A stretch of 64,000 nucleotides of DNA from a virus (IMGVR_UViG_3300028909_000017:61415-125414); one strand, 5' to 3'; positions 9,135 to 44,041 are shown, counted from the stretch's first letter. The notes: a model not told the origin generated them from the letters alone. Program-made: numbers and translations.

Positions 9135-9226
9135 TGGAGTCACTGGAGAGATTCGAACTCGCAAAATTACTTTCGTAATTCTAACGGTTTTGCAGACCGC
9201 GGGCTTGCCATTTTGCCTTCAGTGAC
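9135..9226 (-). tRNA. tRNA-Cys(GCA) with long variable arm
   Basis: GTCACTG/CAGTGAC acceptor, U73, CCA, CT-GCA-AA loop, 8-bp variable stem with GAAA loop. Confidence 0.85.
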
Positions 9227-9237
9227 CCAAAAATCAG

Positions 9238-9329
9238 CGGAAGTGGTAGGATTTGAACCTACGAAACCTGCTCTTCACAAGTTTATTGATTTTCAAGATT
9301 AACGCCTTCAACCACTCGGCCACACTTCC
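9238..9329 (-). tRNA. tRNA-Ser(TGA)
   Basis: Cloverleaf, CT-TGA-AA, long variable arm, G73. Confidence 0.9.
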
Positions 9330-9335
9330 AAATTT

Positions 9336-9425
9336 CGGATGGGGTGGGATTCGAACCCACGAAACCCATTAAATAGGTTTGATAGTTTTCGAGACTATTG
9401 TCGTAAACCACTTGACTACCCATCC
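9336..9425 (-). tRNA. tRNA-Ser(CGA)
   Basis: Cloverleaf, CT-CGA-AA, long variable arm, G73. Confidence 0.9.
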
Positions 9426-9455
9426 ATGAAACATATTTCCTAATACTAATCTTTT

Positions 9456-9547
9456 CGGAGAGTACTCGACTTGAACGAGTACATGTCGATGTTATCAACA
9501 TGAGCCGGTTTTCCAAACCGGGGCGATACCATTCCGCTCAACTCTCC
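9456..9547 (-). tRNA. tRNA-Ser(GGA)
   Basis: Cloverleaf, TT-GGA-AA, long variable arm, G73. Confidence 0.9.
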
Positions 9548-9659
9548 ATTTTGATTCCCTTTGCAACATTCTTGATTATGCTGAAATAGCCGGGGGAAGT
9601 AATGGCATTCGCATTCGCAAATTTTTTGATCTGTCATTCTTTTTCTCCTTTTTTAAGAT

Positions 9660-9746
9660 CGGATAGTGCAAGATTCGAACTTGCGAAACCTTTCGGTTTA
9701 ACACCTTAGCAGGGTGTCGATATAAGCCAGACTCATCCAACTATCC
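9660..9746 (-). tRNA. tRNA-Ser(GCT)
   Basis: Cloverleaf, CT-GCT-AA, long variable arm, G73. Confidence 0.9.
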
Positions 9747-10061
9747 ATAAGTTTACTTTCTGATTTTATTTCTTTCTCGGTCAAAAATTTCTGTACTATC
9801 AGGTGAGATTTCACCACTTTGAATTAATGTACGGGCCCCACCCAAATCGTGACACTTTCTCCTTGCCAATTCATTATCAATATTTTTCTTTTGGGACTGT
9901 AATGAATTTCTTTCAGTGATTAATTCTTTTAATTGATTTTCCAAAGAATTAATTGATTCATTGAGTCTATTAATTTCATTTGAAAACCGAACACCTTCTT
10001 GACATAACGTGCCGAGTGTGATATTTTCGTGCATTATTGTTACCTTTCTTTAATTGTTGGG

Positions 10062-10133
10062 CAGGAGAGCCGATGGTCGAAATCGGAAGTTCGGTTTTGG
10101 AGACCGACAGTTTGCCACTTAGCTTACTCTCCT
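10062..10133 (-). tRNA. tRNA-Trp(CCA)
   Basis: AGGAGAG/CTCTCCT acceptor, CT-CCA-AA, G73. Confidence 0.9.
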
Positions 10134-10142
10134 ACGAATTGT

Positions 10143-10227
10143 TGGTAGCCCCACTCAGATTTGAACTGAGACGCCTTAAAGACATTAGTTCCTAAGACTA
10201 ACGTGTCTTCCGTTCCACCATGGGGCC
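10143..10227 (-). tRNA. tRNA-Leu(TAG)
   Basis: Cloverleaf, CT-TAG-GA, variable arm, A73-CCA. Confidence 0.9.
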
Positions 10228-10255
10228 ACGTTTAAAAATATACTTCGAATAATTT

Positions 10256-10351
10256 TGGTGCAAGCAACTGGTGTCGAACCAGCAATATTAACTCACTATG
10301 GAGGACAGATTTACAGTCTGCTGCGACTAACCAACTATTCGCCTTACTTGC
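10256..10351 (-). tRNA. tRNA-Tyr(GTA)
   Basis: Cloverleaf, CT-GTA-AA, long variable region, A73-CCA. Confidence 0.85.
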
Positions 10352-10369
10352 ATTTACAACTAAACTTTT

Positions 10370-10447
10370 TGGTGCCCGGAGTGGAACTCGAATCCACACT
10401 GGAAGGATTTTGAGTCCTTTGCCTCCTGCCAATTGGGCTACCCGGGC
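10370..10447 (-). tRNA. tRNA-Leu(CAA), short variable loop
   Basis: Cloverleaf, CT-CAA-AA, 5-nt variable loop, A73-CCA. Confidence 0.9.
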
Positions 10448-10454
10448 ACAATAT

Positions 10455-10489
10455 AAAAACCCTGAATGATTATGTCATCCAGGGTTTTT
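10455..10489 (-). terminator. Attenuator terminator 1
   Basis: AAAAACCCTGGATGA-CATAA-TCATTCAGGGTTTTT ends 7 nt before tRNA-Leu(CAA). Confidence 0.85.
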
Positions 10490-10511
10490 GTTTTCCGATT
10501 TAACATCGATT

Positions 10512-10601
10512 TTAACAATTACCTGGACGCATCAAACTCCAATAGAGCAGAGAATAATCTAATGAACATAAACTTGCCGAATTGGATTTTGAAAAAGTCA
10601 T
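10512..10601 (-). CDS. Attenuator leader peptide 1 (MTFSKSNSASLCSLDYSLLYWSLMRPGNC)
   Basis: 29-aa ORF with AGGA RBS; contains CGTCCAGG, complementary to the terminator 5' arm. Confidence 0.75.
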   Translation of the reverse strand: MTFSKSNSASLCSLDYSLLYWSLMRPGNC

Positions 10602-23183: not shown

Positions 23184-23269
23184 TGGGTGTCGGACGGAAA
23201 TCGAATCCGCGTTGCCTTAAGGCCCAGAGTCACAGTCTGGCGTAACAAACCAACAGTTACCTCCGACAC
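23184..23269 (-). tRNA. tRNA-His(GTG) with long variable arm
   Basis: GTGTCGG/CCGACAC-CCA, CT-GTG-AC loop, GCC-TTAA-GGC variable hairpin. Confidence 0.8.
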
Positions 23270-24021
23270 ACTTGCCGAACCGGTATAAACACGGTTCATA
23301 ATTTCACTTAATCCAATTCCATCGCCCTTGTTTTGGTGTAGTAGAATGTCCGGTTAATGATTCGGTCTCACTAATACTCGTAACCCAGAATGTATCATTG
23401 CCGTCTAAAAATACTTGCCCATTTACGCCTGATTTTCCCTCACCAAATTCATTTGGCCATACTCGTACAACAAGTAACGGCAATGTATCTCCAGCGGATG
23501 AGGTATTTCCAATATGAGCCTGAGCACCAATCGGCCAATGCTGAGGAACAACCGCACTACCAGTTAAAAATTCCCCCATTATGTTTAATACGATGAGCAA
23601 TGCTTTCCTTGGTTGTTCTACGTCGATTAATTTGGCTAGCATCTTCTTCCGTTAAAGTGTATTGAACGATGTCACCTACGGTTGGTTGAAAATTTTCCAT
23701 TAATTTATCCTTTTATATATTGTCCCGGCCCTACGCCCAATTGGGGTTTGAAATTTTTATCATTAATAGAATTACCGATACTTGCAATCAATTCATCGAT
23801 CGTATAATCAAAATCAGCTTCGTCCAAAAAGACGCAAACAAATTTCCCATCAATATTCAATTGTAATGCTAATTCATCGGTCCATCCATCGAGATCTGAA
23901 CCATATTTTGCATAGGTTATCGAGTGATGACATTTATTTGGGGGAGGAATTACGTGTTCTAACCTTTTTAAAAATTTAATTAGAAATGTTCTTTGATTCA
24001 TTATTGTCCTTTTTGAAAATG

Positions 24022-24103
24022 CTCCGGGAGAGGGATTCGAACCCCCACGCGATTTCTCTGCCTGATTCAGAGTCAGGTGCCCTGCCAATTAGGCTATCCC
24101 GGA
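24022..24103 (-). tRNA. tRNA-Gln(CTG) with long variable region
   Basis: U1-A72, G73, CT-CTG-AA, 14-nt variable region with GAAA loop. Confidence 0.85.
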
Positions 24104-27867: not shown

Positions 27868-27941
27868 TGGAGCGTCCAATCGGATTTGAACCGATACCCA
27901 CTGGGTGGAAACCAGTGATACTACCATTATACTATGGACGC
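27868..27941 (-). tRNA. tRNA-Gly(TCC)
   Basis: Cloverleaf, TT-TCC-AC, U73-CCA. Confidence 0.9.
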
Positions 27942-31316: not shown

Positions 31317-31330
31317 TTTAATCTTTTATA

Positions 31331-31405
31331 TAGCCGCTCTCGGATTTGAACCGAGGACCTCTTCTTTGTAAGAGAAGCGTTCTAAACCATCTGGACTAAG
31401 CGGCT
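31331..31405 (-). tRNA. tRNA-Val(TAC)
   Basis: Cloverleaf, CT-TAC-AA. Confidence 0.9.
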
Positions 31406-31420
31406 TCGTTATAACTTTTT

Positions 31421-31575
31421 AATATCTTGGACTTACGGCGGAGAATGATAGAAGCATCATCTATCAAGAAGGAGAGCAGCATCCTAGTTCTTATGCGCAT
31501 TATCATCTAGGCCCTCGCTCTTAGTGCGACCTCTTCCGACTGAGCTGTCGTTCTCTCCCGTAAATCCACGATATT
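31421..31575. ncRNA. Candidate structured ncRNA with ~31-bp closing stem
   Basis: Imperfect terminal inverted repeats AATATCTTGGACTTACGG... / ...CCGTAAATCCACGATATT. Confidence 0.5.
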
Positions 31576-32246: not shown

Positions 32247-32259
32247 GTATTCTCTAAAG

Positions 32260-32335
32260 TGGTGATCCCGGGAGAAGTTGCATCTCCATATCAGGTTTCG
32301 TAGACCTGTACCTTATCTAGTTAGATGACGGGACC
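32260..32335 (-). tRNA. tRNA-Arg(ACG)
   Basis: Cloverleaf, CT-ACG-AA, CCA. Confidence 0.85.
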
Positions 32336-32344
32336 AAAAATATT

Positions 32345-32417
32345 TGATCCCCGTAGAATTCGAATCTACATTTACGGTTTCGAAGACCGTTACTCTATCC
32401 AATTGAGTTAGAGGACC
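32345..32417 (-). tRNA. tRNA-Arg(TCG)
   Basis: Cloverleaf, CT-TCG-AA. Confidence 0.9.
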
Positions 32418-32465
32418 GTATAATTTTATTAATTTCGAGCTAACCTTCCTATTTTGAAAAATAAA

Positions 32466-33410
32466 TTACAAATCTTTAACCCAAAAGGTGCCTTCAAAAG
32501 TAGGTTCCATTACCATTTCTTTGGAAAACCCAAAACTTTTTGCCAAATTATCATAAAACATTTTAATTTTATTAATTTCTGTACCTACCAAGGGGTCCCG
32601 CTTACTTATGCTTTCTGCGGTATGTAAAGCAATATGTTTTATATTGCTTTTTCTTGCTATTGAAATTAAACTCGATAGGCCTTCTTCCATCCAATCACGA
32701 AATAAAAATACTAATCTATTTTTAATTTCTTCGAGTTTTTCAACTGTATAACCATAACGAGGAATCATTTCTTTTGCCTGATAAAATTGTTCATGACTTA
32801 TCTTGGCACGAAGCATTTCTTTCCCTTTTTCACCTAATGTCGATTCAAAATCTTCGTATGTATCCGATAATAAAATAGCGGTTGCTTGCTTAATTGAGTT
32901 TATGAGATCAGATTGCACTTCATCAATTAAAATCCAATCTTTATTAATATCATCAATTCTCATCCATCCCACTGTTGTTTTCGAAACAGGGTGACCGGAT
33001 TGTTGACTGCTCTGATTAACCATATCTAAATATTGAAATAATAAACGATCTTTTTTAATTTCGTTAGATATATTTGCATTACGATTAATTTGCATTACCG
33101 TTTGCTTAACTGGTCGAAAAGAAGTTTCTGGATCATTATATGATGCATAAGAAATATTATATTTTTTGGGCGAAATATAATTATCTAAATATGATTTAAC
33201 ATCTTCTATTTTAATATTTGGCTGATTATGTCGAATCTTTTCAATTACATAATTAAATTTTTGCCCAATTTGTTGAAATTTTTTTTGAAAATCGCGCCAA
33301 GAAATTGAAGAAATATTATTATTTTTCATCCATTGATATACTGTCGATATAGCTTCATATTCTGGCGATAACGTATGTTTAAGGTCGGTTGTTATTTCAT
33401 AAAGTCTCAT
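32466..33410 (-). CDS. Hypothetical protein with DEVQSD motif (polyvalent-protein-like domain)
   Basis: GWMRI...ILIDEVQSDL; MRLYEI N-terminus; CATAAATA upstream. Confidence 0.5.
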   Translation of the reverse strand: MRLYEITTDLKHTLSPEYEAISTVYQWMKNNNISSISWRDFQKKFQQIGQKFNYVIEKIRHNQPNIKIEDVKSYLDNYISPKKYNISYASYNDPETSFRPVKQTVMQINRNANISNEIKKDRLLFQYLDMVNQSSQQSGHPVSKTTVGWMRIDDINKDWILIDEVQSDLINSIKQATAILLSDTYEDFESTLGEKGKEMLRAKISHEQFYQAKEMIPRYGYTVEKLEEIKNRLVFLFRDWMEEGLSSLISIARKSNIKHIALHTAESISKRDPLVGTEINKIKMFYDNLAKSFGFSKEMVMEPTFEGTFWVKDL

Positions 33411-33509
33411 ATTGTTATTTATGACAATGAACTACCGTGAGCCCAACAATAAATTTTTAATTAATTTTCGCTTCCGATAATTCTTTAATTAATGAATCCA
33501 CATAATTAT

Positions 33510-34430
33510 TTACTCTAACAATTTAATTTCTTCCGGAAGGATTCCAAATGTTTCCCACCAAAATTCCGGACCACGATCTTTAAATTTTTTCCAAACTTTA
33601 TGACCGTCACTTAATTTTTTATTCATAAGAATTACTTCTGCTTCCATCAATTCTTTAAATGAAAACATTTTAAAATCTTTTTCGTCTTTAATAAACCTTC
33701 GAATTAATTTCCTACAAATATATTGTTTACCTTTTCCACCAGGAAAAATATTTTGAGATATTAAAAGTCTGATTGTTCTTAAATGATCTCGGCTTATGGG
33801 AGATAAATTTTGGTCAAATAAAGAGCTTTCATCTACCCTACTACAACCTCCAATTAATTGAATCAATCTTTCAAAACCAAATCCAACATCAATAGAATGC
33901 TTATTAGGATTTACCAAATTACCTATTTCTAATTTATTGCTGAACATTTCACAACAATAATCACCATTGTCGGTTTCACATGATTTCCATATACATTCCG
34001 AATCGAATTTTGTTTTAAATCCCAATTTAACCCAAATATTTTGATGATTGGACATCGGATTACACGTTACATAATCAATATTAATTCCCAAATTATTAAT
34101 AATATTTGACCACATTTCGCAATGTTGTTCGTAATTATTGGTACCGAATCCAAAACTACCAACCATAGTAAAACTAGTTAGATGAGATCCATCTCCGACT
34201 AAATCGATATCATTTGTTCGAATACATTTTTGAAAAGTGCCCAACTGTGTTTTATTGGGATTATTGAATAAATGCTTTAATGGCTGCATTCCAGAACATA
34301 TAAATAATGTACTTTTGTCAATATCATTTGGAATAATGTTATTATTGGTTGACCAGATAATATTATTTTTTCTAAATTCATCGGTAATCACATTGATTAC
34401 TGATTTCGAATTGTGTCCTGCTGTGTACAC
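33510..34430 (-). CDS. Truncated alanyl-tRNA synthetase (catalytic domain only)
   Basis: LFICSGMQPLK, QKCIRTNDIDLVGDGSHLTSFTMVG, IDVGFGFERL, DHLRT; no editing or C-Ala domain. Confidence 0.85.
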   Translation of the reverse strand: MYTAGHNSKSVINVITDEFRKNNIIWSTNNNIIPNDIDKSTLFICSGMQPLKHLFNNPNKTQLGTFQKCIRTNDIDLVGDGSHLTSFTMVGSFGFGTNNYEQHCEMWSNIINNLGINIDYVTCNPMSNHQNIWVKLGFKTKFDSECIWKSCETDNGDYCCEMFSNKLEIGNLVNPNKHSIDVGFGFERLIQLIGGCSRVDESSLFDQNLSPISRDHLRTIRLLISQNIFPGGKGKQYICRKLIRRFIKDEKDFKMFSFKELMEAEVILMNKKLSDGHKVWKKFKDRGPEFWWETFGILPEEIKLLE

Positions 34431-34447
34431 AGCATCCTCCCAGAATG

Positions 34448-35365
34448 TTAATTTTGTTTTTGCAATTTTTCTGCTACAGCATTTCTTTCTTCTTCGTTTA
34501 ATTGATCGACATTAATTTTTGCTTCCAATAATTCTTTAATTAATGAATCCACATTTTTATTTAGTTTACGAGTTCTTTTATGTTTTATGACGGGAGATTC
34601 GGTAATTTCAGATGATTTATGTAAATCAAATGCAAGTAACATTGATAACGCCAAAGGATCAAAAACTATTACCAATAAAATAATCATCCATCGAACTGCT
34701 CGATCTAATAAATTTTGGTTGGGATTATCACCATATAACATTTCAGCAATATATTTAATTGGACCAACATCAACACTATTTTTTTGCAATTCTAATTTAA
34801 TTGGTGCTTCTTTTTGTTGTAATTGATTAATTTGATTTTGCTTGTCTTGTATATCAGAATTAATTTGTGAACGTTCTTTTTGTTGGCTATTACGAACGGT
34901 TAATGCTTTTGTTGCCCCATTTTCATTTGTACTACTCGAAATTATTTGGGTAATTGCATTATCTAATTGTTTAAGGGTATTTTCATCTGATTGCTTTTCT
35001 GATTGTAAAGTATTAATTTGCCTATCAAAAATTTCAATATTTGACTGAATAGAATCACCGGTTAAACTCTGTGCAATATGCGCTTTAGATAAGAAACCAA
35101 AAATTCCAATGGAAGTAATCGTCATTAAAATTATAATTGCTAATACTAAATAAATTCTTAATAAAATTTTAGTTCGATTCCAATTTTCATGCAGAAATAA
35201 AGTTAAAATTACTTTGGAAATTTCAAGGGAAATACCCATGATGACAACCGCAACAAATGCGCCAGAAAAAATACTTGTTAACCCATTAATAGAATATAAC
35301 GCCGCTGTACAACTTATCGATAATGCCGCAAATAAAAGAGCATAATCTAAAAATTTGTTTTTCAA
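34448..35365 (-). CDS. Membrane-anchored coiled-coil protein
   Basis: Three N-terminal TM segments, Q-rich coil, GPIKYIA...FDPLA. Confidence 0.7.
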   Translation of the reverse strand: MKNKFLDYALLFAALSISCTAALYSINGLTSIFSGAFVAVVIMGISLEISKVILTLFLHENWNRTKILLRIYLVLAIIILMTITSIGIFGFLSKAHIAQSLTGDSIQSNIEIFDRQINTLQSEKQSDENTLKQLDNAITQIISSSTNENGATKALTVRNSQQKERSQINSDIQDKQNQINQLQQKEAPIKLELQKNSVDVGPIKYIAEMLYGDNPNQNLLDRAVRWMIILLVIVFDPLALSMLLAFDLHKSSEITESPVIKHKRTRKLNKNVDSLIKELLEAKINVDQLNEEERNAVAEKLQKQN

Positions 35366-35381
35366 TTCATTGTCCTAAGAG

Positions 35382-36101
35382 TTAATCAGAATCGTAATCG
35401 TTTATATATTGATCATACACGAAAATTTTATTTTTTACAAGTTTTATATGATTCAATGTTTCCTGATCTTTTTTATTATTAATTAATGACTGTAAAATAT
35501 CGAATTGTGCCTCACGTTGCTGAGAAATCATTGCCTGCTCTTCTCGATTATGATTCCACATTCGATCACCTTTTTTACGGGCAGCAGCTAAAATTTTCCA
35601 TGCATCCGGTGAAGTCATTTTTCCATATTCTTCTTTACCTGAAACAGGAAATTTATTTCTCATTGACGATGATAAATGATCTTGAAGAATATGTGTTAAT
35701 TCATGCGCCACCAATTGATCGGCTGCACCTGATAAAAATGTTTTAATATATCTGGGATTCACATAAATTATTCGTTCGCCTTCAGCTACCTGGCACACTG
35801 CATTTGATTCGCCGCCATCCGGTATACCTGAAACAAATTCAATAGTTTTCGGATCTCCAATTCGTTTTTGTATTACCATTGGCAAATTTTTAATCATTGA
35901 TTGACCAACCGAAGTTAGTTCCGAATTAACTTTTGAATCTAAAGAATATGATTGATTCTTCGGAAAATTATGATATACCGAAATTCCACCTAATGTCGAT
36001 GCAGCAAGAGCGGCGACTGCGGCTCCCTTTTTTATTTTTGATGGGGTATCATCCAAAAAATTTTCGTTAATAGTTGGTTTATCAAATTCAATTATTTTCA
36101 T
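35382..36101 (-). CDS. Putative zincin metallopeptidase
   Basis: VAHELTHILQ and REEQA motifs; TATAAATA upstream. Confidence 0.6.
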   Translation of the reverse strand: MKIIEFDKPTINENFLDDTPSKIKKGAAVAALAASTLGGISVYHNFPKNQSYSLDSKVNSELTSVGQSMIKNLPMVIQKRIGDPKTIEFVSGIPDGGESNAVCQVAEGERIIYVNPRYIKTFLSGAADQLVAHELTHILQDHLSSSMRNKFPVSGKEEYGKMTSPDAWKILAAARKKGDRMWNHNREEQAMISQQREAQFDILQSLINNKKDQETLNHIKLVKNKIFVYDQYINDYDSD

Positions 36102-36351
36102 TACATAATTATTTATATGGATATACGGTAATTATAGTTCGAGCATATATTTCATCGCTTCCATAATTTCATTTGCCGCTTCTTTCCATGCTTCATCTAT
36201 TGATTCGGGCATTGAATTTGCCAAAAATTTAGATCGAAAATTACTATCGATTATATATCTCCTTGGTTTAGTGCCCGGTAATACCCCAGCTTATCGCGTT
36301 GGGATATTTTGACAAGACAATATTTTTTGCATCTGTTATATTCATAATTTT

Positions 36352-36428
36352 TGGTGGCCCAAGTGGAATTTGAATCCACAATCTTTTCCTTGAAAGGGAA
36401 ATGTCCAAACCAATTAGACGGTTGGGCC
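36352..36428 (-). tRNA. tRNA-Glu(TTC)
   Basis: Cloverleaf, CT-TTC-AA, CCA. Confidence 0.9.
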
Positions 36429-36667
36429 TTATTTTTCTAATAAATAAATTAGTTTTTCTTCATCGGATAATTTACGAGTAATTTCTGATTCTAAAATTAA
36501 TCCTACATTATCAATTTCGTAAGCATTATTTACACTATAAGTCACCCGGCTCGTTAATGTTGCAATTTTGGGGCATTCTTCGTTAATAACATATTCAACT
36601 ATATCTCCGATTTTGAATTTGTATGTGCTATTAGGTAATTCATTTATTGAAACCGGAAGAACTTTTT

Positions 36668-37339
36668 TCAATTAATTACTCCTAAATTATTATCTTCACG
36701 AATTTTTCGGGTTGCAAAATGTCCCATTACATTTCCAAAACCAAACTGCGACTCACATAAAACATAACTATAATTTCGATATGATTTATCTTTTTTGAAA
36801 TATTTTTCCATTTCCTCCAATGATGAAAATTTTTCTAAAGTTTGTGTAGGTTTATCCTTTGCATAAAGACAAACTTTATGACCGGAATTAAATAATTTTT
36901 TCCAAATTTTAAAACCATCTTCACTTAATGTTTCATCACTGTGCAAGCAAATATCTTTTTTTGAATCTTTAAGAATGTTCAAATAAACATCAGAAGCAAA
37001 TGGTGGTCGTTTTCTAAATGCGGGATCTTTGCCACTCATACGAACTACTAATGCGTACGGTCTTTTTTCTAATGAAATTCCCAATATTATTTTTTTCTCA
37101 TTTGTAATCCAATAATATATTTGGTCGGTTAATTCTAATTTATGAAAATTTGGTTTAATATTGACCACTTTACTTTCATAATATTCTAAATAATCTTCAA
37201 TTATATTTTTAATTCCCGGCCATGATTCAAATAGGTGATTTTCTGGTGACTCGACTAGATATGTTTCATTGAAGGAACTTCTACCGGTAATATCATTATT
37301 CCATTTGCCGCCAATTCCTAACATTTCATTAATTTTCAT
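36668..37339 (-). CDS. GNAT-like paralog family A
   Basis: MKINEM; PFASDVYL; SDETLSEDGFKIWKKL; TATAAATA upstream. Confidence 0.6.
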   Translation of the reverse strand: MKINEMLGIGGKWNNDITGRSSFNETYLVESPENHLFESWPGIKNIIEDYLEYYESKVVNIKPNFHKLELTDQIYYWITNEKKIILGISLEKRPYALVVRMSGKDPAFRKRPPFASDVYLNILKDSKKDICLHSDETLSEDGFKIWKKLFNSGHKVCLYAKDKPTQTLEKFSSLEEMEKYFKKDKSYRNYSYVLCESQFGFGNVMGHFATRKIREDNNLGVIN

Positions 37340-37370
37340 ATCGGACCTTTCGAAATCAATATTTATAATT

Positions 37371-37442
37371 GTGGTCCGGAGGCAATTGAAACCTCATATG
37401 GGATTCCACAGATCCCCGCCTAAACCTTTCGGCCACGGCCAC
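37371..37442 (-). tRNA. tRNA-His(GTG), degenerate second copy
   Basis: GGGAT-CTGTGGA-ATCCC anticodon arm; bulged acceptor and irregular T arm. Confidence 0.5.
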
Positions 37443-37477
37443 ACTTGTTAGAACCGGTTAAATCACAGTTCAAAAAT

Positions 37478-37553
37478 TGGTCTCCGAGGCCGGATTTGAA
37501 CCGGCGCCATATCGCCCCGAACGATAGATGCTACCAGGCTACACTACTCAGAG
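37478..37553 (-). tRNA. tRNA-Pro(CGG)
   Basis: C1-G72, TT-CGG-GG, A73-CCA. Confidence 0.9.
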
Positions 37554-38055
37554 ATATAGCAAACTACCCATACGTTGAATTTGGTTGGTTTTCCTTCCTT
37601 CAACAGTTTGCCGGTTAAACTTTATTAGATATTTCTAAACTTTTCGTATTACCTTCTTCATTAATCATAATTGATTCATCGCATAATGGGCATTTATATC
37701 CCGCAAATCCCACTATAGAGAATCCATCCCATTCAAATTCCTAGGATATTTTTGATCTTCATTAATTATTTTCGGGCAAGATGTATGATATATTTCCATT
37801 TTTAAAAGGCTTTCGACCAATGATGTCGTTGTGCGTTATTGAAATTACAGGCCAATGTTTGGTTTTGAGTTAAAACAATTTGAATGTCAGCGGCTGAATT
37901 TCCTACATGGCTAACAAGCGCCATTATCTTTTTGTGTGGTTCTTTGGAACATTGAAAACAATCGTTAATATTACCAGGTTTATTCGGCGTCAAAATGAAT
38001 TCTTCACCGCATGAACGACAAATTCGTTTATTCAATATAATTCCTTTCTTTAAAA

Positions 38056-38199
38056 TGGTGGCCCTGAATGGATTCGAACCATTATCTTTGCATCAATTCA
38101 TCCTGATTACAAATTGATAGCAACGGTTTACCGTTGACACTACTCCACTAGCAAGCACACGAACATACGTTTTCGATGTCTTACCAATATCTAAGGGCC
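38056..38199 (-). ncRNA. 144-nt tRNA-like RNA with expanded core
   Basis: GGCCCT/AGGGCC-A-CCA acceptor and AATGG-TTCGAAT-CCATT T arm enclose extra hairpins. Confidence 0.7.
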
Positions 38200-38591
38200 A
38201 AAATTATTTAAATACGATCTGGGTATTGTTTTCTATCTAATCCCGTAATTACTCGATCAGTAATAGATTCGGGATCACATAAATTTTTAAACTTTTTTAT
38301 TGCTTTATTTACCTCGTCGCGCCGCTGTGATATATATTCAGGCAAACGGTTCACCTTTTGATCGAAAACACAATATTTGAGTAATTGTGGTGGTAAATTG
38401 TCTTCTAACCACCACCCATCTTCGTCGGGGAACATTTTGAAAAATAAGTAGTATTCTTTACTCCCAGGAATACACTCCTTTGGCATTTCATATTTACGAA
38501 CATACCGTCGTTCTAGTAAGGCAAAATCCCAATACCAATCAATTCGGAGCATTTGGCCATTTGTTTTATCAAAGCCCGTTAATTTGTAATA

Positions 38592-38880
38592 CATGAACCC
38601 CCCTCCTTAAAGGGTTTGACTCTTAAGGCGATTTGCCCCAAGAATTTGTTCCTGCTTCAATAATACATAATTAGTAACTGGTATACCAGTTACCCCATTA
38701 GAGGTATTTCCACAGGCGTGTGAGGAATTACAAGTAATCCCATCAATTTCCGAAGTTCCTTCGGTATTTTGAAATTATAATTGAGTTTCTTGGTTATCGA
38801 AACTCAATTATATTTATTCAACTCGCTTATATTCCCAACCAAAGTTGGTGGTTTTGCTCGTAAGTCGGAAATAAATTCCT
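38592..38880 (-). mobile_element. Non-autonomous IS200/IS605-derived omega-RNA-like element, copy 2
   Basis: AATACCGAAGGAACTTCGGAAATTGA...ACGCCTGTGGA...GAAGCAGGAA; homologous to 24484-24735. Confidence 0.65.
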
Positions 38881-38962
38881 TTCAAAAATTTAATTATTAC
38901 GTCTGGGATCAAACCAGCACCTCCGGACTCCACGCCCGGTGTTCAGCACAGTATCGGTTTCG

Positions 38963-38994
38963 TAATTCATAAATGTCGCGACATTTATGAATTA
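38963..38994. repeat. Perfect 32-bp palindrome
   Basis: TAATTCATAAATGTCG|CGACATTTATGAATTA. Confidence 0.95.
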
Positions 38995-39071
38995 ATTCCT
39001 ACCGTTTAGCCCCGGGATGCACAAGTGCCCCCGCTATTCCCCCGATCTTTTGAACTTCGCAATAAACTTGT

Positions 39072-39623
39072 TTAGAATGCAGTATCACCGTAATCTTCAG
39101 TAAGACTTTCATGATTTTCGACAAAATTCTTGAGAGTATTATTAATTAATTCATTCAGAGTAATATCTTGCTCATGAGCTAATTTCATTAATGAAAATAA
39201 TTGATCATGCCTAAAATCTAAGGAAACAGTTACTCGGTCATCATACGATTCACCATTGGAAATAGCATGGAACTTTTCGATAAAATCTTCGTCAACATCG
39301 AGATCAATAAAAGGAACATTCTCCCAGGCTTCATCAATATTAATGGAGCCGGTTGGATCACGCTTTGCAACTTCCTCGGAATGTTCGTTGATATAATCCG
39401 GATTAATAATACGATATGCTCGATTATTTTTGTAATCACAAACTTCGATTTCAAATACCTTTTCGGAATTTGCTTCAAAAATAATACTGGTTTCATATCC
39501 ATTTTGATCGTCATTCCAATAATTCATAATTCGGGCTTTGTTACCATAACAATCCCATTCGAATTTTACACTATCGGTAATAAGATAGTTAGTAAGTTTC
39601 ATCCATTCATTTAGAGTAATCAT
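39072..39623 (-). CDS. Hypothetical phage protein
   Basis: Clean 183-aa ORF with GAAAGGA RBS; C-terminal AHEQDITLNELIN resembles an RHH element. Confidence 0.6.
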   Translation of the reverse strand: MITLNEWMKLTNYLITDSVKFEWDCYGNKARIMNYWNDDQNGYETSIIFEANSEKVFEIEVCDYKNNRAYRIINPDYINEHSEEVAKRDPTGSINIDEAWENVPFIDLDVDEDFIEKFHAISNGESYDDRVTVSLDFRHDQLFSLMKLAHEQDITLNELINNTLKNFVENHESLTEDYGDTAF

Positions 39624-39638
39624 TTTTGTTCCTTTCGG

Positions 39639-40265
39639 TTATAGTAATTCATCATTTTTGAAATAATGATAATACGGCTTTAATAGACGATTATCATTCC
39701 ATTGGTTATTATCTTCGTTTAATTTCGGTACATCAATTGATTTATTTTCGATAAAAATTGAAGTTGGGCCAGTTGTATCCAAAGAATTATCTGAATTAAA
39801 GTCGTCAAAAGATTTATTCCATTCAGCCTGAATTAATTTTACTGTTGGAATTTCTCCAGTTTGTGTTTTTAAATTTAAACCTGCACCATTCTTTTTGATT
39901 ATTTTAATTAACCATCTTAGTCCGGAATATGTTAATTTTTCGGTATCTTTAATTACAAATTTTAATCCCGATGCAATTAATGAAACAACTATCATTGTTG
40001 CTAATCCACCAATACCCGAAATATTTTCAAGTCGAACCAATGGTAATAATTTTTCATTAGTTTTTTCTGTAGCAATATACGCTTGCAATTCATTTTGGGC
40101 ATCAACGATGATAAAAAAATTATTAGCTTTATCGGTCAATTTTAAAATTTCATGCCCTTCAATATTTGAAAAATGTTCGGTATATTGAATAAGTGACGGG
40201 TTCCAATTTAACTTTGGGCAAATTGAAGTCATTCCAATTTCATTTAATATTTCTTTAATTTTCAT
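39639..40265 (-). CDS. GNAT-like paralog family B
   Basis: True start MKIKEILNE; LVRLENI...GLATMIV...LTYSGLRWLIKI. Confidence 0.55.
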   Translation of the reverse strand: MKIKEILNEIGMTSICPKLNWNPSLIQYTEHFSNIEGHEILKLTDKANNFFIIVDAQNELQAYIATEKTNEKLLPLVRLENISGIGGLATMIVVSLIASGLKFVIKDTEKLTYSGLRWLIKIIKKNGAGLNLKTQTGEIPTVKLIQAEWNKSFDDFNSDNSLDTTGPTSIFIENKSIDVPKLNEDNNQWNDNRLLKPYYHYFKNDELL

Positions 40266-40274
40266 TTTAACCTT

Positions 40275-40352
40275 TGGTAGGCGTGGTTGGAATTGCGCCA
40301 ACGACCTCGAAATTATCAGTTTCGCGCTCTAAACTAACTGAGCTACGCGCCT
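40275..40352 (-). tRNA. tRNA-Ile(GAT)
   Basis: Cloverleaf, CT-GAT-AA, CCA. Confidence 0.9.
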
Positions 40353-40408
40353 ATATTTCAATCACTTAAGAATATAGATTTAATGTTTTTGTACTTCACT
40401 ACTTTTTA

Positions 40409-40437
40409 AGTATATCAAATTTATAATCGATTGTCAA
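40409..40437 (-). promoter_or_regulatory. sigma70-type promoter
   Basis: TTGACA-17-TATACT. Confidence 0.7.
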
Positions 40438-40465
40438 GAATAATTTATTTACCATTTTAAATTAG

Positions 40466-40539
40466 TAGCGAGATCGGAACTCGAATCCGAAACTGTATTT
40501 TATGAGAATACCGAAATTATCCACTTTTTCTACCTCGCC
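40466..40539 (-). tRNA. tRNA-Met(CAT), elongator-like (Ile2 not excluded)
   Basis: Cloverleaf, CT-CAT-AA. Confidence 0.8.
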
Positions 40540-40550
40540 GTAATTTATAT

Positions 40551-40625
40551 TGGTTGCGGGTACCGGATTTGCACCGGATCTTTAGATTATGAGTCTAATG
40601 TATGACGCTACGCTACCAACCCGCT
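40551..40625 (-). tRNA. tRNA-Met(CAT) with initiator-like acceptor
   Basis: A1xA72 mismatch, GCGGG/CCCGC, CAT anticodon, lacks the three G-C anticodon-stem pairs. Confidence 0.7.
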
Positions 40626-40657
40626 TCAAAATTTGTATATTAATTCGTCATTTAAAA

Positions 40658-41275
40658 TTAAGGATTTATATAATCTTTACTACTACTCAACGAACCGTAA
40701 AATAGGCTGTCATAATCTCTTCCATTTTTCTTTTTCCGTGTATTATTACGATCCCAATTTTCTAGTAATTCTGGAGAAAAAATATTTTTTCTAATAAGTA
40801 ATACGGTTGAATCTTGTTCGTTCCAAATTTCATTTTCAGGAACTAATGATGCCAAAATTATATTTTTTGTTTCCATATTTAATACGTAGATACTTATTTT
40901 TTCACTTGGATGTTTAATTAAACTTTTCCATGCATTTTTCGACTCATCTGTTTGGTGAGTGTCGGATAAAATTTCACTATGTCGATTAACCGAAGTATTA
41001 ATTAAATATCTGAAACATCCTTGACCTTGATAATTTATATCTGTTTCCGTATACGAAATTTGAAATCTATTACCCGGCGTTCTAATTTCAAGGTGTAAAA
41101 AAGCTATCAAATTATCATTGTTAAATAACCCCAAATAATGGTCCTCTAATTCGATTAGTTCAGCAAATTTTAAATTTCCAAATGCAGATATCTTTTTTAG
41201 ATCATCAAATATCCATTGATATTTTTCCATTGGATCAGATCGACTAACCAAACTTACAATTTCTGTTATTTTCAT
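40658..41275 (-). CDS. GNAT-family acetyltransferase-like protein
   Basis: YQGQGCF acetyl-CoA motif; SDTHQTDESKNAWKSL; MKITEI N-terminus. Confidence 0.7.
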   Translation of the reverse strand: MKITEIVSLVSRSDPMEKYQWIFDDLKKISAFGNLKFAELIELEDHYLGLFNNDNLIAFLHLEIRTPGNRFQISYTETDINYQGQGCFRYLINTSVNRHSEILSDTHQTDESKNAWKSLIKHPSEKISIYVLNMETKNIILASLVPENEIWNEQDSTVLLIRKNIFSPELLENWDRNNTRKKKNGRDYDSLFYGSLSSSKDYINP

Positions 41276-41483
41276 TACTGCCTTATATTTAAAGAGTCAA
41301 TATGATCATGACCACATTTTGGATATCCACAACAAGGGCAATTTTTCTTTTCTGCTAGCTTTCCACATGGTGTCAGGCACGATGAACAGCGAATAATTGC
41401 AGTTAATTCAATGTCATCAAAATTCACTATTTCCAATGGAGCATTACAACCGTATTTGCATTTCATAATTATCCTCGTTAACG

Positions 41484-41593
41484 ATTAATATCGGGTGTTC
41501 CTAATATCTCCTTCGATATTTTGTAGGACTTGGACTTTAAGACCCCTATGCTGGCTTTACATCTTTTCGTATGTAAAGGCACCCGATATTAAT
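41484..41593. ncRNA. Candidate multibranch ncRNA
   Basis: 14-bp perfect closing stem ATTAATATCGGGTG/CACCCGATATTAAT with two internal hairpins. Confidence 0.5.
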
Positions 41594-42546
41594 TTTCTAA
41601 AATATAAATTAATGATTCATTTTCCGATGCTTTAATTAATTCGTTGGCATCCCAAAAATAATTTTCGTTATTTACATTTAACGATATAAACGACTCACCG
41701 GGTTTTAAAGTTTCAATTATTCGGTTAATTTGACCCAATATTAAAGTTGAGTTATTATGCAATGCAGGAATAACCGGTAACCATACAACATCTCCGATTT
41801 TTAATGAAATACCATTTCCATCGATCATTATTTTTCAATTTTAATTATCTGATGATCGTTAGTATTGCACTCGCCATTCATATGCATCAATTTAAGTTGC
41901 TTTCGATTTTTTGCCCACCATTGCCGCCAATTAATAGTTCTTTTATTGTTTCGTAATGGCAGCAAATGTTCACAATTTTTACACCAGAGTTGCATTAATC
42001 TTTCTCCTCTTTATTTTGCGTTTATACGGTGCGGACCCGTCTTTTCTTCTTTAACGATAACCTGCAGATTACCAACAAAGTGTCCTAAATCCGTTAGACG
42101 ATCGCGCAAAAATTATTTTTCCAATAAGTAAATCATTGCTTCATCGGTTGATAATTCACGAATAATTTCACTTTCCAGAATCGTAAATGAACCATCAATT
42201 ATATATGCCTGAGTTATGCCCGTCAAATTTCTACATTCTATAATTTTTCCTATATGAGAATTTCGGGGTGGTCTTTCGGAATAATAACTATATTCGACAT
42301 ATGACCCTATCGCATATTTATAATTCATTGAAGTTGTTACCTTTCCAATAGATATATTAACGATTCTTCCCTGGTTAATTCACGAATAATTTCATTCTGA
42401 AGAACATTCTAGCTATCAATATTATATAATTGGTTTACCGTTCCCGTTGAATAACGCGAAATAATTTTACCTATTTTGTTATAGATACTAGATAGTATCT
42501 ATAACAAATAAACCAATTTCATATTTGTATGTCATTTTAATCTTTT

Positions 42547-42621
42547 TGGTAGGCGAGGAGAATTTCGAAATCTCGATCTTCCTCTTATAAGGGGGACGCT
42601 TTACCTCTAAGCTACTCGCCT
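42547..42621 (-). tRNA. tRNA-Ile(TAT)
   Basis: AGGCGAG/CTCGCCT acceptor, CT-TAT-AA, A73-CCA. Confidence 0.85.
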
Positions 42622-42641
42622 ACATTTTAAATCTAATCTTT

Positions 42642-42719
42642 TGGTGGGACTAGTGGGCATCGAACCCACGACCTCCGCCTTAAAGGGGCGTTGCTGCTGC
42701 CAAACTGAGCTATAGTCCC
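42642..42719 (-). tRNA. tRNA-Lys(TTT), C33
   Basis: CGCC-CCTTTAA-GGCG anticodon arm, A73-CCA. Confidence 0.8.
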
Positions 42720-42732
42720 GTTTTAAAACTTT

Positions 42733-42825
42733 TGGTGCGACCGGTGAGATTTGAACTCACGGTGGGAGAATTACTCTCCATCAGATTAAGAGTCTGGTCT
42801 CTGCTAGCCTCTCGAGTACGATCGC
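42733..42825 (-). tRNA. tRNA-Lys(CTT) with long variable arm
   Basis: CT-CTT-AA; GGAGA-GTAAT-TCTCC variable hairpin; A73-CCA. Confidence 0.85.
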
Positions 42826-42898
42826 ATTTTAAAATCGTTACCAATTTTTAACCCTTGAATTTTTCCTGTATGTTTCGTTCGCGTGTGCTATAAACTAT

Positions 42899-42973
42899 TG
42901 TCAGAGTGAGTCTCGACCTCACATTTCCCAGGCTTACAGCCGTAAGGGCGTCTTACCATTAAACTATCTGACT
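42899..42973 (-). ncRNA. tRNA-like RNA with aberrant anticodon arm
   Basis: GTCAGA/TCTGAC acceptor, D and T arms present, extended CCCTTACGGCTGTAAGCCTGGG arm. Confidence 0.55.
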
Positions 42974-43315
42974 AGCTCGAGACTTCTACTCGAGATCGCT
43001 TCACAATGTCAAAAAGCGTTTGAATCGATTAAAATTTGTTTAAAGACCGAATAAAGTCAAGAGGTAAACTATCATCCCACCCTTTATTGCTACTCCACTT
43101 TTCTATAGTGTCAATATACATTGCAACAAATATACATAGAATCATTGGGCTAATAGTCAATAAAACAACCAAATAAAAAATCTTAAATATTAATCTTACA
43201 ACAAATTTCATATTATCCTTTCTTAAATTATTTGCTGATACTTATCACGTATCAATCTCAACATTCAATATTATCGAACTGTCGACTGTCGTCATGCTCG
43301 ACCCACAAATAAAGT

Positions 43316-43450
43316 TGGCTGAAGGGGTGGGATTCGGACCCACAATGACTTTCATCGCTCGGTTACTTTTGGTCTTACTGGAATCAAACCAGCATAATGC
43401 AAACCTGCGAGACCCACAGCCGAGTGCCTTACCATTCGGCACACCCTTCA
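43316..43450 (-). tRNA. tRNA-Asn(GTT) interrupted by 50-nt insertion in the anticodon; long variable region
   Basis: TGAAGGG/CCCTTCA-G-CCA; CTCGG-CT-GT[50 nt]T-AA-CCGAG. Confidence 0.75.
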
Positions 43451-43635
43451 AAAATTCATTTTTTAAGTTTCATCATATATCTTTTTCTGACAGTATAAAC
43501 ATATATGCCGCATATTTATTTCCCTGTAAATTTCTTCATCAAATGGATCAGCAACGTATTCTACATCTGGTTTAACTTCACCACATTCATCGCAAGTTGA
43601 TTCATGATCCATAATGTTCTCCAATCACTATTTAA

Positions 43636-43665
43636 ATAGTATCATATCTGCCATTAAATTGTCAA
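43636..43665 (-). promoter_or_regulatory. sigma70-type promoter
   Basis: TTGACA-18-TACTAT. Confidence 0.6.
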
Positions 43666-43674
43666 TCTGAAATT

Positions 43675-43748
43675 CGGTTCTGACAAAATTCGAATTTGCA
43701 TCTTTCTCCGTGACAAGGAGACGCTCTATCCAGTTAAGCTACAGAACC
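43675..43748 (-). tRNA. tRNA-Asp(GTC)
   Basis: Cloverleaf, TT-GTC-AC, G73. Confidence 0.9.
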
Positions 43749-43753
43749 ATTAT

Positions 43754-43834
43754 TGCGGTTGATAGGATTTGATACCTATACTAAAGTGGAAGAAATCATC
43801 TACCCACTGCCTCTGTTGTTTGGGCTACAACCGC
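43754..43834 (-). ncRNA. tRNA-like RNA (Leu-like body, elongated anticodon arm)
   Basis: GCGGTTG/CAACCGC-A acceptor, T arm, AGTGGGTAGA-TGAT-TTCTTCCACT arm without a canonical loop. Confidence 0.55.
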
Positions 43835-43846
43835 AAATTTTAAAAT

Positions 43847-43932
43847 TGGTCAGAGCGGAGAGATTCGAACTCTCGATACCCGAAGGTGCCGCGCCCCAAA
43901 CGCGGAGGCAAACCAGACCTGCCGCCGCTCTG
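43847..43932 (-). tRNA. tRNA-Pro(TGG) with long variable arm
   Basis: C1-G72, TT-TGG-GG, ACC-TTCG-GGT variable hairpin, A73-CCA. Confidence 0.85.
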
Positions 43933-43954
43933 ACATTTAAATTTCTGAAAGTAT

Positions 43955-44041
43955 TGGAGCGGGTGAGGAGATTTGAACTCCCAGTGATTTTTCAATCTCC
44001 GGTTTGGAAGACCGGTTCCATACCAAATAGGATTCACCCGC
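43955..44041 (-). tRNA. tRNA-Gly(TCC) with long variable arm
   Basis: GCGGGTG/CACCCGC-T-CCA, CT-TCC-AA, GATT-GAAA-AATC variable hairpin. Confidence 0.85.

Follow-up and report, generated by a model that had tools for sequence, protein, structure and literature searches.

Long variable arms on normally short-arm tRNA isotypes in a phage tRNA island, with cognate identity elements retained

Introduction

Bacterial tRNAs with long variable arms are limited to the leucine, serine, tyrosine or selenocysteine isotypes (PMC9976931). The rule underlies isotype prediction, ideas about the substrates of seryl- and leucyl-tRNA synthetases (SerRS and LeuRS), and the design of orthogonal tRNAs. Here we describe a 64,000-nucleotide stretch of viral DNA (IMGVR_UViG_3300028909_000017:61415-125414, hereafter the window, always meant at its full length) in which seven tRNA genes with Cys, His, Gln, Lys, Asn, Pro and Gly anticodons have long variable regions. 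The rule is broken by this phage lineage, and by about one in twenty of the tRNAs other than Leu, Ser and Tyr in the phage tRNA clusters that we sampled, with the cognate acceptor and anticodon elements kept.

Several described systems share part of this design. The allo-tRNAs and the (8/4) tRNA-Ser/tRNA-His species of bacteria and phages (Mukai et al. 2017, PMC5389517) have in common with the genes described here their long arms, their anticodons outside Leu, Ser and Tyr, their origin in soil and peat data, and their link to phage tRNA clusters. The SelC* tRNA-Cys of the same study combines a long arm, U73 and a GCA anticodon, and is thus a precedent for a class-II-like body that carries cysteine identity. 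The nev-tRNAs of nematodes (Hamashima et al. 2012, PMC3333845) are class II tRNAs with anticodons that are neither Leu nor Ser; they are eukaryotic, unlike the phage genes. The opposite change, loss of the arm from a leucine tRNA, is exemplified by the type I tRNA-Leu(CAA) of Streptomyces coelicolor, which has a short variable loop and is charged by the single LeuRS of that organism (Fan et al. 2019, PMC6614811). Among cultured phages, phiKZ (AF399011.1 269557-269645) carries a tRNA-Asn gene of 87-89 nt with a GAAA-capped arm, and Escherichia coli phage 4MG (KF550303.1) carries a long-arm Asn gene of 89 nt as well as Leu(UAA) and Leu(UAG) genes with 5-nt variable regions; both records label the Asn genes as plain tRNA-Asn and leave the arm unremarked. 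In the literature that we searched, supplements excluded, we found no account of phage tRNAs for Cys, Gly, Pro, His, Lys, Gln or Asn that have long arms.

Seven long-arm tRNA genes in one window

The window holds 35 tRNA or tRNA-like genes: 29 were called by ARAGORN, 27 reached the gathering score of Rfam (five of these missed by ARAGORN), and one more, an Asn gene, came from the intron mode of ARAGORN. Outside Leu, Ser and Tyr there are 27 genes (21 from ARAGORN, five from Rfam only, and the Asn gene), and 7 of the 27 have variable regions of 13-20 nt. A first-pass annotation of the window, made from the sequence alone, had pointed out these seven isotypes, and ARAGORN and Rfam bear it out at each position. 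Five of the seven are found by ARAGORN in default mode, Gly by Rfam and Asn by the intron mode of ARAGORN; in practice, two of the seven escaped the default tRNA finders. In Rfam, where the gathering score is 29, five of the genes score 40.9-60.1 bits.

All seven genes lie on the minus strand, and the details of their arms differ from gene to gene. The tRNA-Cys(GCA) gene (9135..9226; ARAGORN; Rfam 40.9 bits; 92 nt with CCA) has a 20-nt variable region with a 7-bp stem and a GAAA loop, together with A8, a 3-bp D stem, G1-C72, U2-A71 and U73. In tRNA-His(GTG) (23184..23269, called by ARAGORN at 23185-23269) the variable region is 13 nt long, with a 3-bp stem and a TTAA loop, and the gene has A8 and C73; when it is read with a 7-bp acceptor stem and 5-bp T stem (the 7/5 register), base -1 is U and no G-1 is encoded, and an alternative reading gives an 8-bp acceptor helix followed directly by CCA. 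The tRNA-Gln(CTG) gene (24021..24103; ARAGORN; Rfam 60.1 bits) has a variable region of 14 nt without a stable hairpin, U1-A72, C2-G71, G73 and U8. The tRNA-Lys(CTT) gene (42733..42825; ARAGORN; 93 nt), which Rfam aligns with an insertion at the variable position (45.9 bits), carries a 19-nt variable region with a 5-bp stem and a 5-nt loop, a weak 3-bp D stem, G1-C72 and an A73-CCA end.

The remaining three genes lie close to one another. The tRNA-Asn(GTT) gene (43316..43450), which is found only in the intron mode of ARAGORN and is missed by default ARAGORN and by Rfam at E <= 1, combines a 14-nt variable hairpin with a 50-nt insertion in the anticodon loop, and has U1-A72, G2-C71 and G73-CCA. 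In tRNA-Pro(TGG) (43847..43932; ARAGORN; 86 nt) a 14-nt variable region forms a 3-bp stem with a TTCG loop, alongside G8, C1-G72 and A73-CCA. The long-arm tRNA-Gly(TCC) gene (43955..44041; Rfam RF00005, 54.4 bits; missed by ARAGORN; 87 nt) has a 13-nt insertion at the variable position that forms a 4-bp stem with a GAAA loop, A8, G1-C72, C2-G71, G3-C70, U73-CCA and an ordinary T stem with G50-C64 and G51-C63.

To judge the hairpins, each variable region was folded alone and compared with 1000 shuffles, the value being the fraction of shuffles with an energy as low. The hairpins of Cys (0.000, i.e. 0 of 1000), His (0.003), Lys (0.006) and Gly (0.007) are significant, and those of Asn (0.056) and Pro (0.119, with its 3-bp stem closed by TTCG) are marginal. 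The Gln region formed no hairpin when folded alone and is therefore an enlarged loop, not an arm. The earlier description of the arms as mostly hairpins is thus accurate, with six of the seven able to fold and Gln as the exception. Class II tRNAs are defined by a variable region of more than 10 nt that forms a stem-loop; all seven genes have the length and six have the hairpin, and their anticodons (GCA, GTG, CTG, CTT, GTT, TGG and TCC) lie outside the Leu, Ser, Tyr and Sec isotypes to which the class is restricted.

Two further features that had been noted at first pass are also present. Position 8 is A in Cys, His and the long-arm Gly, and G in Pro; the tRNA-Tyr of the window also has A8, and U8 is found in every tRNA with a short variable region, other than Leu, Ser and Tyr, that ARAGORN calls in the window. 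Additionally, tRNA-Leu(CAA) (10370..10447, minus strand; ARAGORN; Rfam 52.1 bits; 78 nt; A73-CCA) has lost its arm, its variable region being 5 nt long.

For most of the long-arm genes, namely Cys, His, Gln(CTG), Lys(CTT) and Pro(TGG), the phage has no second copy with that anticodon. For Gly(TCC), two genes occur in the same phage, the 87-nt long-arm gene with A8 and a canonical short-arm gene of 74 nt (27868..27941, minus strand; ARAGORN; Rfam 63.9 bits).

Identity elements

In each of the seven genes the discriminator base (position 73), and in most of them the first base pair too, matches the amino acid of the anticodon. Retained are U73 and GCA in Cys; G1-C72, C2-G71, U73 and C35C36 in Gly; C1-G72, A73 and G35G36G37 in Pro; A73 in Lys; U1-A72 and G73 in both Gln and Asn; and C73 in His. 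These agree with the determinants listed in PMC9976931. The first-pass claim that discriminators and first pairs remain cognate therefore stands for the seven, with the qualification that, read in the 7/5 register, the His gene encodes no G-1. An ortholog of the His gene, on a related contig introduced below, reads as a 7/5 cloverleaf with C73 and CCA.

What of serine identity, which a long arm might be expected to suggest? G1-C72 and G2-C71 are conserved in most bacterial tRNA-Ser (PMC9976931), and in the window all four tRNA-Ser genes (TGA, CGA, GGA and GCT; 9237..9747, minus strand; ARAGORN), which lie directly upstream of the long-arm Cys gene, have G1-C72, G2-C71 and G73. None of the seven long-arm genes has this set. 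Mischarging by SerRS, which the first-pass annotation had put forward, is thus unlikely, as far as these sequence elements can tell.

Relatives rebuild, gain and lose the arms

Relatives of this phage, found via a neighbouring protein and a Gly pattern, include two IMG/VR records, G001 (99,640 b) and G002 (127,373 b), and a metagenome contig, L229 (292,778 b), whose Gly(TCC) gene is identical to that of G001. Long arms occur in all three. G002 has them on Ala(TGC), Gly(TCC), Pro(TGG), Arg(ACG), Trp(CCA) and Cys(GCA), together with short-arm Leu(CAA) and Leu(TAG) genes; G001 has them on Gly(TCC) and Trp(CCA), with a short-arm Cys; and L229 has a long-arm His(GTG) whose 4-bp arm differs in sequence from that of the window His.

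Where orthologs share an arm, its pairing is kept and its sequence is not. Long-arm Gly(TCC) genes were found in G002, G001 and at three further loci (L230, L231 and L232); the loops are of the GNRA type (GAAA, GTAA or GCAA) and the stems covary (gatt/aatc, gat/atc, tgtc/gaca, ggc/gcc and tgc/gca). The Pro arm reads acc-TTCG-ggt in the window and gttc-GTAA-gaac in G002, on D and anticodon arms that are nearly identical; a strict pattern built on the D arm of this Pro gene matched G002 alone. The two His stems are gcc/ggc and gttc/gaac, and the Cys ortholog of G002 has a long arm unlike the window's in sequence. For Gly, these comparisons were read directly from four well-aligned rows, as RNAalifold on nine long-arm Gly genes returned no consensus arm helix, the unequal arms having been misaligned by MAFFT.

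In other orthologs the arm is present in one phage and missing in another. Lys(CUU) is long in the window and a 77-nt short-arm gene with an identical T arm in G002; Cys is long in the window and G002 and short in G001; Trp is short in the window and long in G001 and G002; the intron-bearing Asn has a long variable region in the window and a 4-nt one in G002; Leu(TAG) is long in the window and short in G002; and the Gln(CTG) genes of relatives have variable regions of only 4-5 nt. Because orthologs either rebuild their stems or differ in having an arm at all, we conclude that the arm is kept by selection where it is present and turns over between genes. The first-pass proposal of repeated independent arm gain is upheld to the extent that arms come and go between orthologs; gain is one reading of this pattern, which a switch of identity fits equally well.

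The turnover can be followed within one array. The genes Leu(CAA)-Tyr-Leu(TAG)-Trp-Ser x4-Cys (window 9135-10447, minus strand) are syntenic with an array in G002 (L005:3667-5720; Leu, Leu, Trp, Tyr, Ser x3, Cys), and within it the presence or absence of an arm falls on different members in each phage.

A recurrent trait of phage tRNA clusters

The long-arm Cys gene belongs to a family that is found mainly in phages. A strict Cys(GCA) pattern in which 16-34 nt separate the anticodon stem from the T loop matched 82 IMG/VR stretches, compared with 20 in one genome each of 185,579 prokaryote species; the corresponding short-arm pattern matched at least 116 stretches in IMG/VR and at least 120 in prokaryote genomes. 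Even among the 20 prokaryote stretches, 11 lie in dense arrays (8-26 tRNAs within 8 kb), compared with 1 of the first 40 short-arm loci. One of the 20 is on a contig of 362,763 b, equal in size to an IMG/VR record matched by the same pattern.

The Cys sequences themselves also point to selection on the arm. At 80 of the 82 IMG/VR loci there are 47 unique long-arm Cys sequences, with U73 in 45 of the 47, a tRNA-Ser-like D arm, and arms that are mostly 3-5 bp long with GNRA loops. With a covariance model built from these 47, we aligned 139 matches (86 distinct rows), in which all four pairs of the arm helix show changes on both sides and 78.9% of cells are paired, in an alignment fitted to a covariance model, which favours structure. 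When only the Cys rows are counted (49 distinct), pairing is seen in 137 of 172 cells, compared with 39-60% in slid registers.

How common are long arms more generally? The 116 phage loci chosen via the short-arm Cys pattern, in which ARAGORN called 916 tRNAs, served as an unselected set of phage tRNA clusters. Variable regions of at least 10 nt occur in 40 of 756 (5.3%) tRNAs other than Leu, Ser and Tyr, and at least one such tRNA is present in 27 of 107 control loci; short-arm Leu genes make up 25 of 73. Counted by unique sequence the long-arm share is 19 of 579, the lower figure being due to the way in which the control was picked, via one anticodon-stem sequence and with many loci from one metagenome. 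A bacterial baseline of 120 loci gave 0 of 160 long-arm tRNAs other than Leu, Ser and Tyr, where 119 of the 160 are Cys by construction. The binomial probability of at least 7 of 27 at the phage rate of 40/756 is 4e-4, which marks the window as an extreme instance of a trait that recurs in phages.

A survey across phage tRNAs had been suggested in the first-pass annotation, and the present sample bears on a caution raised there, that such arms might turn out to be common and neutral across phage tRNAs; common they are, and since their stems covary they are not neutral. Long arms in phages affect nearly all isotypes. Several phage tRNA-Ile(TAT) genes, in control loci L126 and L173 and in L013, have long arms with GAT-like triplets in their loops. 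No such arm is present in the window, where the arm loops (GAAA, TTCG, TTAA and similar) are not copies of the cognate anticodon loop, and a 'decoy anticodon' reading was rejected there for that reason.

Among cultured phages, the long-arm Cys and Gly genes of the window had no match at E <= 1e-5; when the threshold was relaxed to E <= 5, the best matches of Cys were weak partial ones to tRNA-Ser (E = 3, about 72% identity, 77% of the query). E. coli phage EJP2, which we examined after these weak tRNA-Ser matches, has ordinary tRNAs only, six genes in 40 kb.

An apparently remodelled tRNA core

Long arms are associated with a short D stem. In the control, D stems of at most 3 bp are found in 13 of 19 long-arm tRNAs, compared with 161 of 560 short-arm ones (P = 5e-4); the corresponding figures are 65 of 79 and 66 of 277 in the Cys set, and 9 of 14 and 13 of 49 in the clade of the window (P = 0.013). 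Within the window, the D stems of Cys, Lys and Gly have 3 bp, those of His and Gln have 4 bp, and that of Pro can be read either way. The tRNAs for Leu, Ser and Tyr in bacteria also have a 3-bp D stem, with positions 13 and 22 not Watson-Crick paired, and short-arm Leu, Ser and Tyr genes in the control have a D stem of at most 3 bp in 24 of 26 cases. Additionally, in the clade of the window every tRNA without U8 has an enlarged variable region. Tied as it is to the 3-bp D stem and, in this lineage, to the loss of U8, the arm appears to be part of a remodelled core, not a random insertion.

The base at position 8 can pair with that at position 65 in His, the long-arm Gly, Pro and Tyr, which makes an 8/4 helix possible there, and cannot do so in Cys. 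In the clade of the window this pairing is suggestive; across the survey, a non-U8 base pairs with position 65 in 8 of 14 tRNAs with long arms and in 26 of 57 with short ones, figures that are not separable from chance. ARAGORN and Rfam fit 7/5 cloverleaves to these genes, the D loops are 8-12 nt long and contain GG, the anticodon stems are 5 bp, and there is no D arm like that of tRNA-Sec; the Pro gene scores only 22 bits against the tRNA-Sec model, whose gathering score is 47.

The record and the surroundings of the genes

The window comprises bases 61415-125414 of a linear IMG/VR virus record with a total of 125,414 b, for which CheckV estimates a completeness of 59%; if that estimate holds, the source is a large phage of about 210 kb. 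All tRNAs of the record fall within the window, where the G+C content is 34%, the minus strand carries every tRNA gene and every open reading frame (ORF) of at least 150 aa, and the ORFs are long and open under translation table 11. Their Pfam names (ClpX, GMP reductase/IMPDH, NAMPT, NMNAT-Nudix, HNH endonuclease, ATP-grasp, amidoligase, PolX-like nucleotidyltransferase and a fragment of the alanyl-tRNA synthetase (AlaRS) core) suggest a large phage that carries auxiliary metabolic functions. No close relative is present in 50,697 cultured-phage records, blastn of the Cys-Leu array giving only short tRNA matches over at most 8% of the query, and words sampled from the region are present in peat metagenomes.

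The tRNA island also includes an amidoligase-like gene, an ATP-grasp gene and the AlaRS-core fragment, and an ORF for the PolX-like nucleotidyltransferase (44050-44586) lies directly upstream of the long-arm Gly(TCC). The AlaRS-like ORF (306 aa; 33510-34430, minus strand) matches Pfam tRNA-synt_2c at 3.2e-22 over about 100 residues of the class II AlaRS catalytic core; it would encode a cut-down AlaRS-like protein, and both Ala tRNAs of the window retain G3-U70. We considered whether phage-encoded synthetases might have co-evolved with the odd tRNAs and set the idea aside, as only the AlaRS-core fragment was seen: neither tRNA-synt_2b nor tRNA-synt_2 had a match in this record, which is 59% complete, so that their absence from the phage is not proven.

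Outside the window, the same phage record encodes a protein of the CCA-adding-enzyme family (PolyA_pol, 1.8e-36, in a 453-aa frame) and two RNA-ligase-family proteins (5e-18 and 2e-7), with the matches at G000:C1:38257-38616, 53434-53814 and 55268-55786. Judged from their family assignments, these look like a tRNA maturation and repair kit, as if the phage had invested in tRNA maintenance. A CCA-adding enzyme fits the many phage tRNA genes that have no encoded CCA, and perhaps the interrupted tRNA genes fit the kit too.

Three odd tRNA-like genes lie nearby, all on the minus strand: one at 42898-42973 (Rfam 34.4 bits), with 16 nt at the anticodon arm where the model has 11; one at 43760-43847, recognized by eye and with RNAfold only, which has acceptor and T arms and a 12-14-nt 'anticodon' loop; and one at 45351-45423 (53.4 bits), with a 6-nt anticodon loop and the ARAGORN label '???'.

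The 50-nt insertion of the Asn(GTT) gene consists of an outer stem and an inner T-arm-like hairpin. The Asn gene of G002 (L004:7796-7921) has an insertion of the same length at the same site, with compensatory changes in both the outer stem and the T-arm-like hairpin. Other interrupted genes were seen in G002 (L004:1675-1790, 2115-2232 and 2908-3012), namely two Ile(TAT) genes with 41 and 27 nt and, as a doubtful call, a Leu(CAA) with 42 nt, and in G001 (L001:7-143), a Lys(TTT) by ARAGORN with 61 nt. 'Enigmatic' tRNA introns have been described in Lak megaphages (PMC6784885), and the insertions here are alike in being short, in interrupting the anticodon loop of phage tRNA genes that are otherwise intact and in being conserved between relatives; their splicing is putative.

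Contigs from four peat RNA libraries match parts of 28001-48000 at 99-100% identity, and one of them spans 43851-44008 through the Pro arm without a joint. No spliced joint was seen in the RNA-library contigs on 28001-48000, where uncovered regions are uninformative.

Working decoders, shields, relics or something else?

The arms exist and persist in relatives through compensatory change; they are widespread in phages but rarely seen in cellular genomes, and they are associated with a class II D stem. On balance we consider it probable that the long-arm genes are working elongator decoders, cognately charged, with a class-II-like body in which the structure of the arm is under selection. We infer from the genes that they would be expressed, charged with their cognate amino acids and used by the ribosome. 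Host cognate synthetases would recognize the retained acceptor-end and anticodon elements, and those that read the anticodon and position 73 should tolerate a long arm; EF-Tu and the ribosome accept long arms on Leu, Ser and Tyr tRNAs. For the arm hairpin, pairing and a stable loop (GNRA or UUCG) would be what is selected, with the sequence left free. Why, then, is a class II body kept? The most economical answer is core stabilisation, or entrenchment after descent from Leu/Ser/Tyr-type genes, both of which are likelier than escape from host enzymes. Gain of an arm accounts for the pattern no better than an identity switch in ancestral Leu/Ser/Tyr-type bodies.

A number of observations pull the other way. 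The variable region of Gln lacks a helix; in the standard register the His gene encodes no G-1; and, as a canonical Gly(TCC) is present, the long-arm Gly is not needed merely to supply that anticodon. CysRS and ProRS of E. coli also use the 15-48 Levitt pair (PMC9976931), which a long arm must alter, and there may be hosts in which cognate charging fails. The D-stem type may mark descent from class II genes as much as co-adaptation, because short-arm Leu, Ser and Tyr genes retain it. Finally, the interrupted Asn gene would need a putative splicing step, and the RNA-library contigs may be carried-over DNA; expression, maturation and charging are what we infer.

A rather unlikely though attractive alternative, compatible with working decoders, is that arm and remodelled core (non-U8, 3-bp D stem) serve counter-defence, hiding the tRNA body from host tRNA nucleases or toxins while synthetases, EF-Tu and the ribosome would still accept the altered tRNAs. 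The enrichment of long-arm Cys in phages (82 IMG/VR stretches compared with 20 in the 185,579 species genomes), its occurrence in dense arrays when it is found in prokaryote genomes (11 of 20, as opposed to 1 of 40), the retention of both a canonical and a long-arm Gly(TCC), and the two RNA-ligase-family proteins are all in keeping with this idea; T4 repairs cut tRNAs with RNA-ligase-type enzymes. One could picture, doubtful as it is, that phages have uncoupled the amino-acid type of a tRNA from its body, so that every isotype could take on a class II body and Leu could shed it, with the arm, the loss of U8 and a possible 8/4 helix hiding tRNAs from nucleases or toxins that read the body, a quarter of the set converted, and an armoured and a canonical Gly(UCC) side by side. 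However, nearly all isotypes are affected, with no set matching known nuclease targets, and we know of no nuclease that reads the variable region. In favour of the idea, phage tRNAs reportedly escape anticodon nucleases through sequence change (PMC10264068, PMC13056530, PMC11555353, PMC11464382); against it, the published escapes map to the anticodon stem-loop (PMC10264068), and the word 'variable' occurs 0 times in the available part of the text of that article. Less probable again is a neutral relic, in which the genes are Leu, Ser or Tyr genes with switched anticodon and discriminator, or carry a chance hairpin, and the arm persists unselected. The gain and loss of arms between orthologs (Lys, Cys, Trp, Asn), the decay of the Gln arm to an unpaired loop, the position of Cys next to four Ser genes with a D arm of class II type, the partial and weak matches (E = 3) of the Cys family to tRNA-Ser as its best ones among cultured phages, and the 3-bp D stem of short-arm Leu genes, by which D-stem type tracks ancestry, would all follow from such a history. 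A relic should decay, yet the stems of Gly, Pro, His and Cys have been rebuilt with new sequence under GNRA or UUCG caps, and the Cys arm helix covaries across 49 distinct sequences.

The two other explanations that we considered would take the tRNAs away from cognate decoding. In one, which we regard as very improbable, SerRS, LeuRS or TyrRS charges the long-arm tRNAs and Cys, Gly, Pro, Lys and other codons are partly read as Ser or Leu, as is proposed on the precedent of nematode nev-tRNAs and bacterial allo-tRNAs. For serine identity, arm size is the main element and the anticodon is ignored, and A73, which Lys and Pro have, is a leucine determinant in E. coli (PMC9976931); in E. coli, allo-tRNAs that have G73 or U73 place Ser at codons other than those for Ser (PMC5389517), and the arms of Cys (7 bp) and Lys (5 bp) are of tRNA-Ser length. 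Set against this, all seven genes keep the discriminator of their anticodon's amino acid and 0 of 7 have the tRNA-Ser set of acceptor elements that 4 of 4 window Ser genes have, the arms of His, Pro and Gly are just 3-4 bp, the window's ORFs, read with table 11, are long and open, and U73 in 45 of 47 phage Cys sequences points to selection for CysRS. In the other, also improbable though a little less so, the tRNAs have a role outside translation, as decoys for tRNA-binding host factors or as dedicated aminoacyl donors to an enzyme outside the ribosome, with the second Gly(TCC), for example, serving the amidoligase or ATP-grasp enzyme. The redundancy of the long-arm Gly(TCC) with the canonical copy and the amidoligase-like, ATP-grasp and AlaRS-core genes of the island would suit such a role, as would the finding that some irregular soil tRNAs are charged and unused in translation (PMC5389517). 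But a long-arm gene is the sole copy for the Cys, His, Gln(CTG), Lys(CTT) and Pro(TGG) anticodons, the T stems are ordinary (G50-C64 and G51-C63 in the long-arm Gly), and no enzyme partner has been identified.

Comparison with known systems and outlook

If the long-arm tRNAs are charged correctly, at least CysRS, GlyRS, ProRS, HisRS, LysRS and AsnRS tolerate a class II body, and such tRNAs would be useful for tRNA engineering, for example with the arms as handles or aptamer sites. The genes also open a question about the conflict between phage and host over tRNAs, one that is testable now because the cultured phages phiKZ and 4MG carry the same design.

What differs from the known cases is the combination of cognate identity with a class-II-like body that fits a 7/5 fold, on many isotypes and in phages. 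In the allo-tRNAs, helices of 8/4 or 9/3, a tetraloop on a long D stem and a lengthened anticodon stem accompany a presumed serine identity (G73 or U73) (PMC5389517). The phage genes, by contrast, fit 7/5 cloverleaves with G18G19 D loops and 5-bp anticodon stems, and their identity elements follow the anticodon, although base 8 could pair with base 65 in His, the long-arm Gly, Pro and Tyr to give an 8/4 helix like that of the allo-tRNAs. The nev-tRNAs reportedly keep leucine identity and hence mistranslate, whereas in the phage genes the discriminator is still that of the amino acid which the anticodon specifies. SelC* tRNA-Cys mimics tRNA-Sec (8/4 with a bulge, and long stems) and comes from anaerobic bacteria (PMC5389517); the phage Cys family has a tRNA-Ser-like D arm, a 7/5 fold and a place in phage tRNA arrays. 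The short-arm Leu(CAA) of S. coelicolor is a cellular gene whose LeuRS has adapted via a leucine-specific domain (PMC6614811), while the one here is a phage gene. The same design is seen in the Asn genes of phiKZ and 4MG, in which a class I isotype carries a GNRA-capped arm of 3-4 bp, a 3- or 4-bp D stem and a G73-CCA end; of the 1 and 25 tRNAs of these phages, respectively, one or two are of this kind, and the window has seven.

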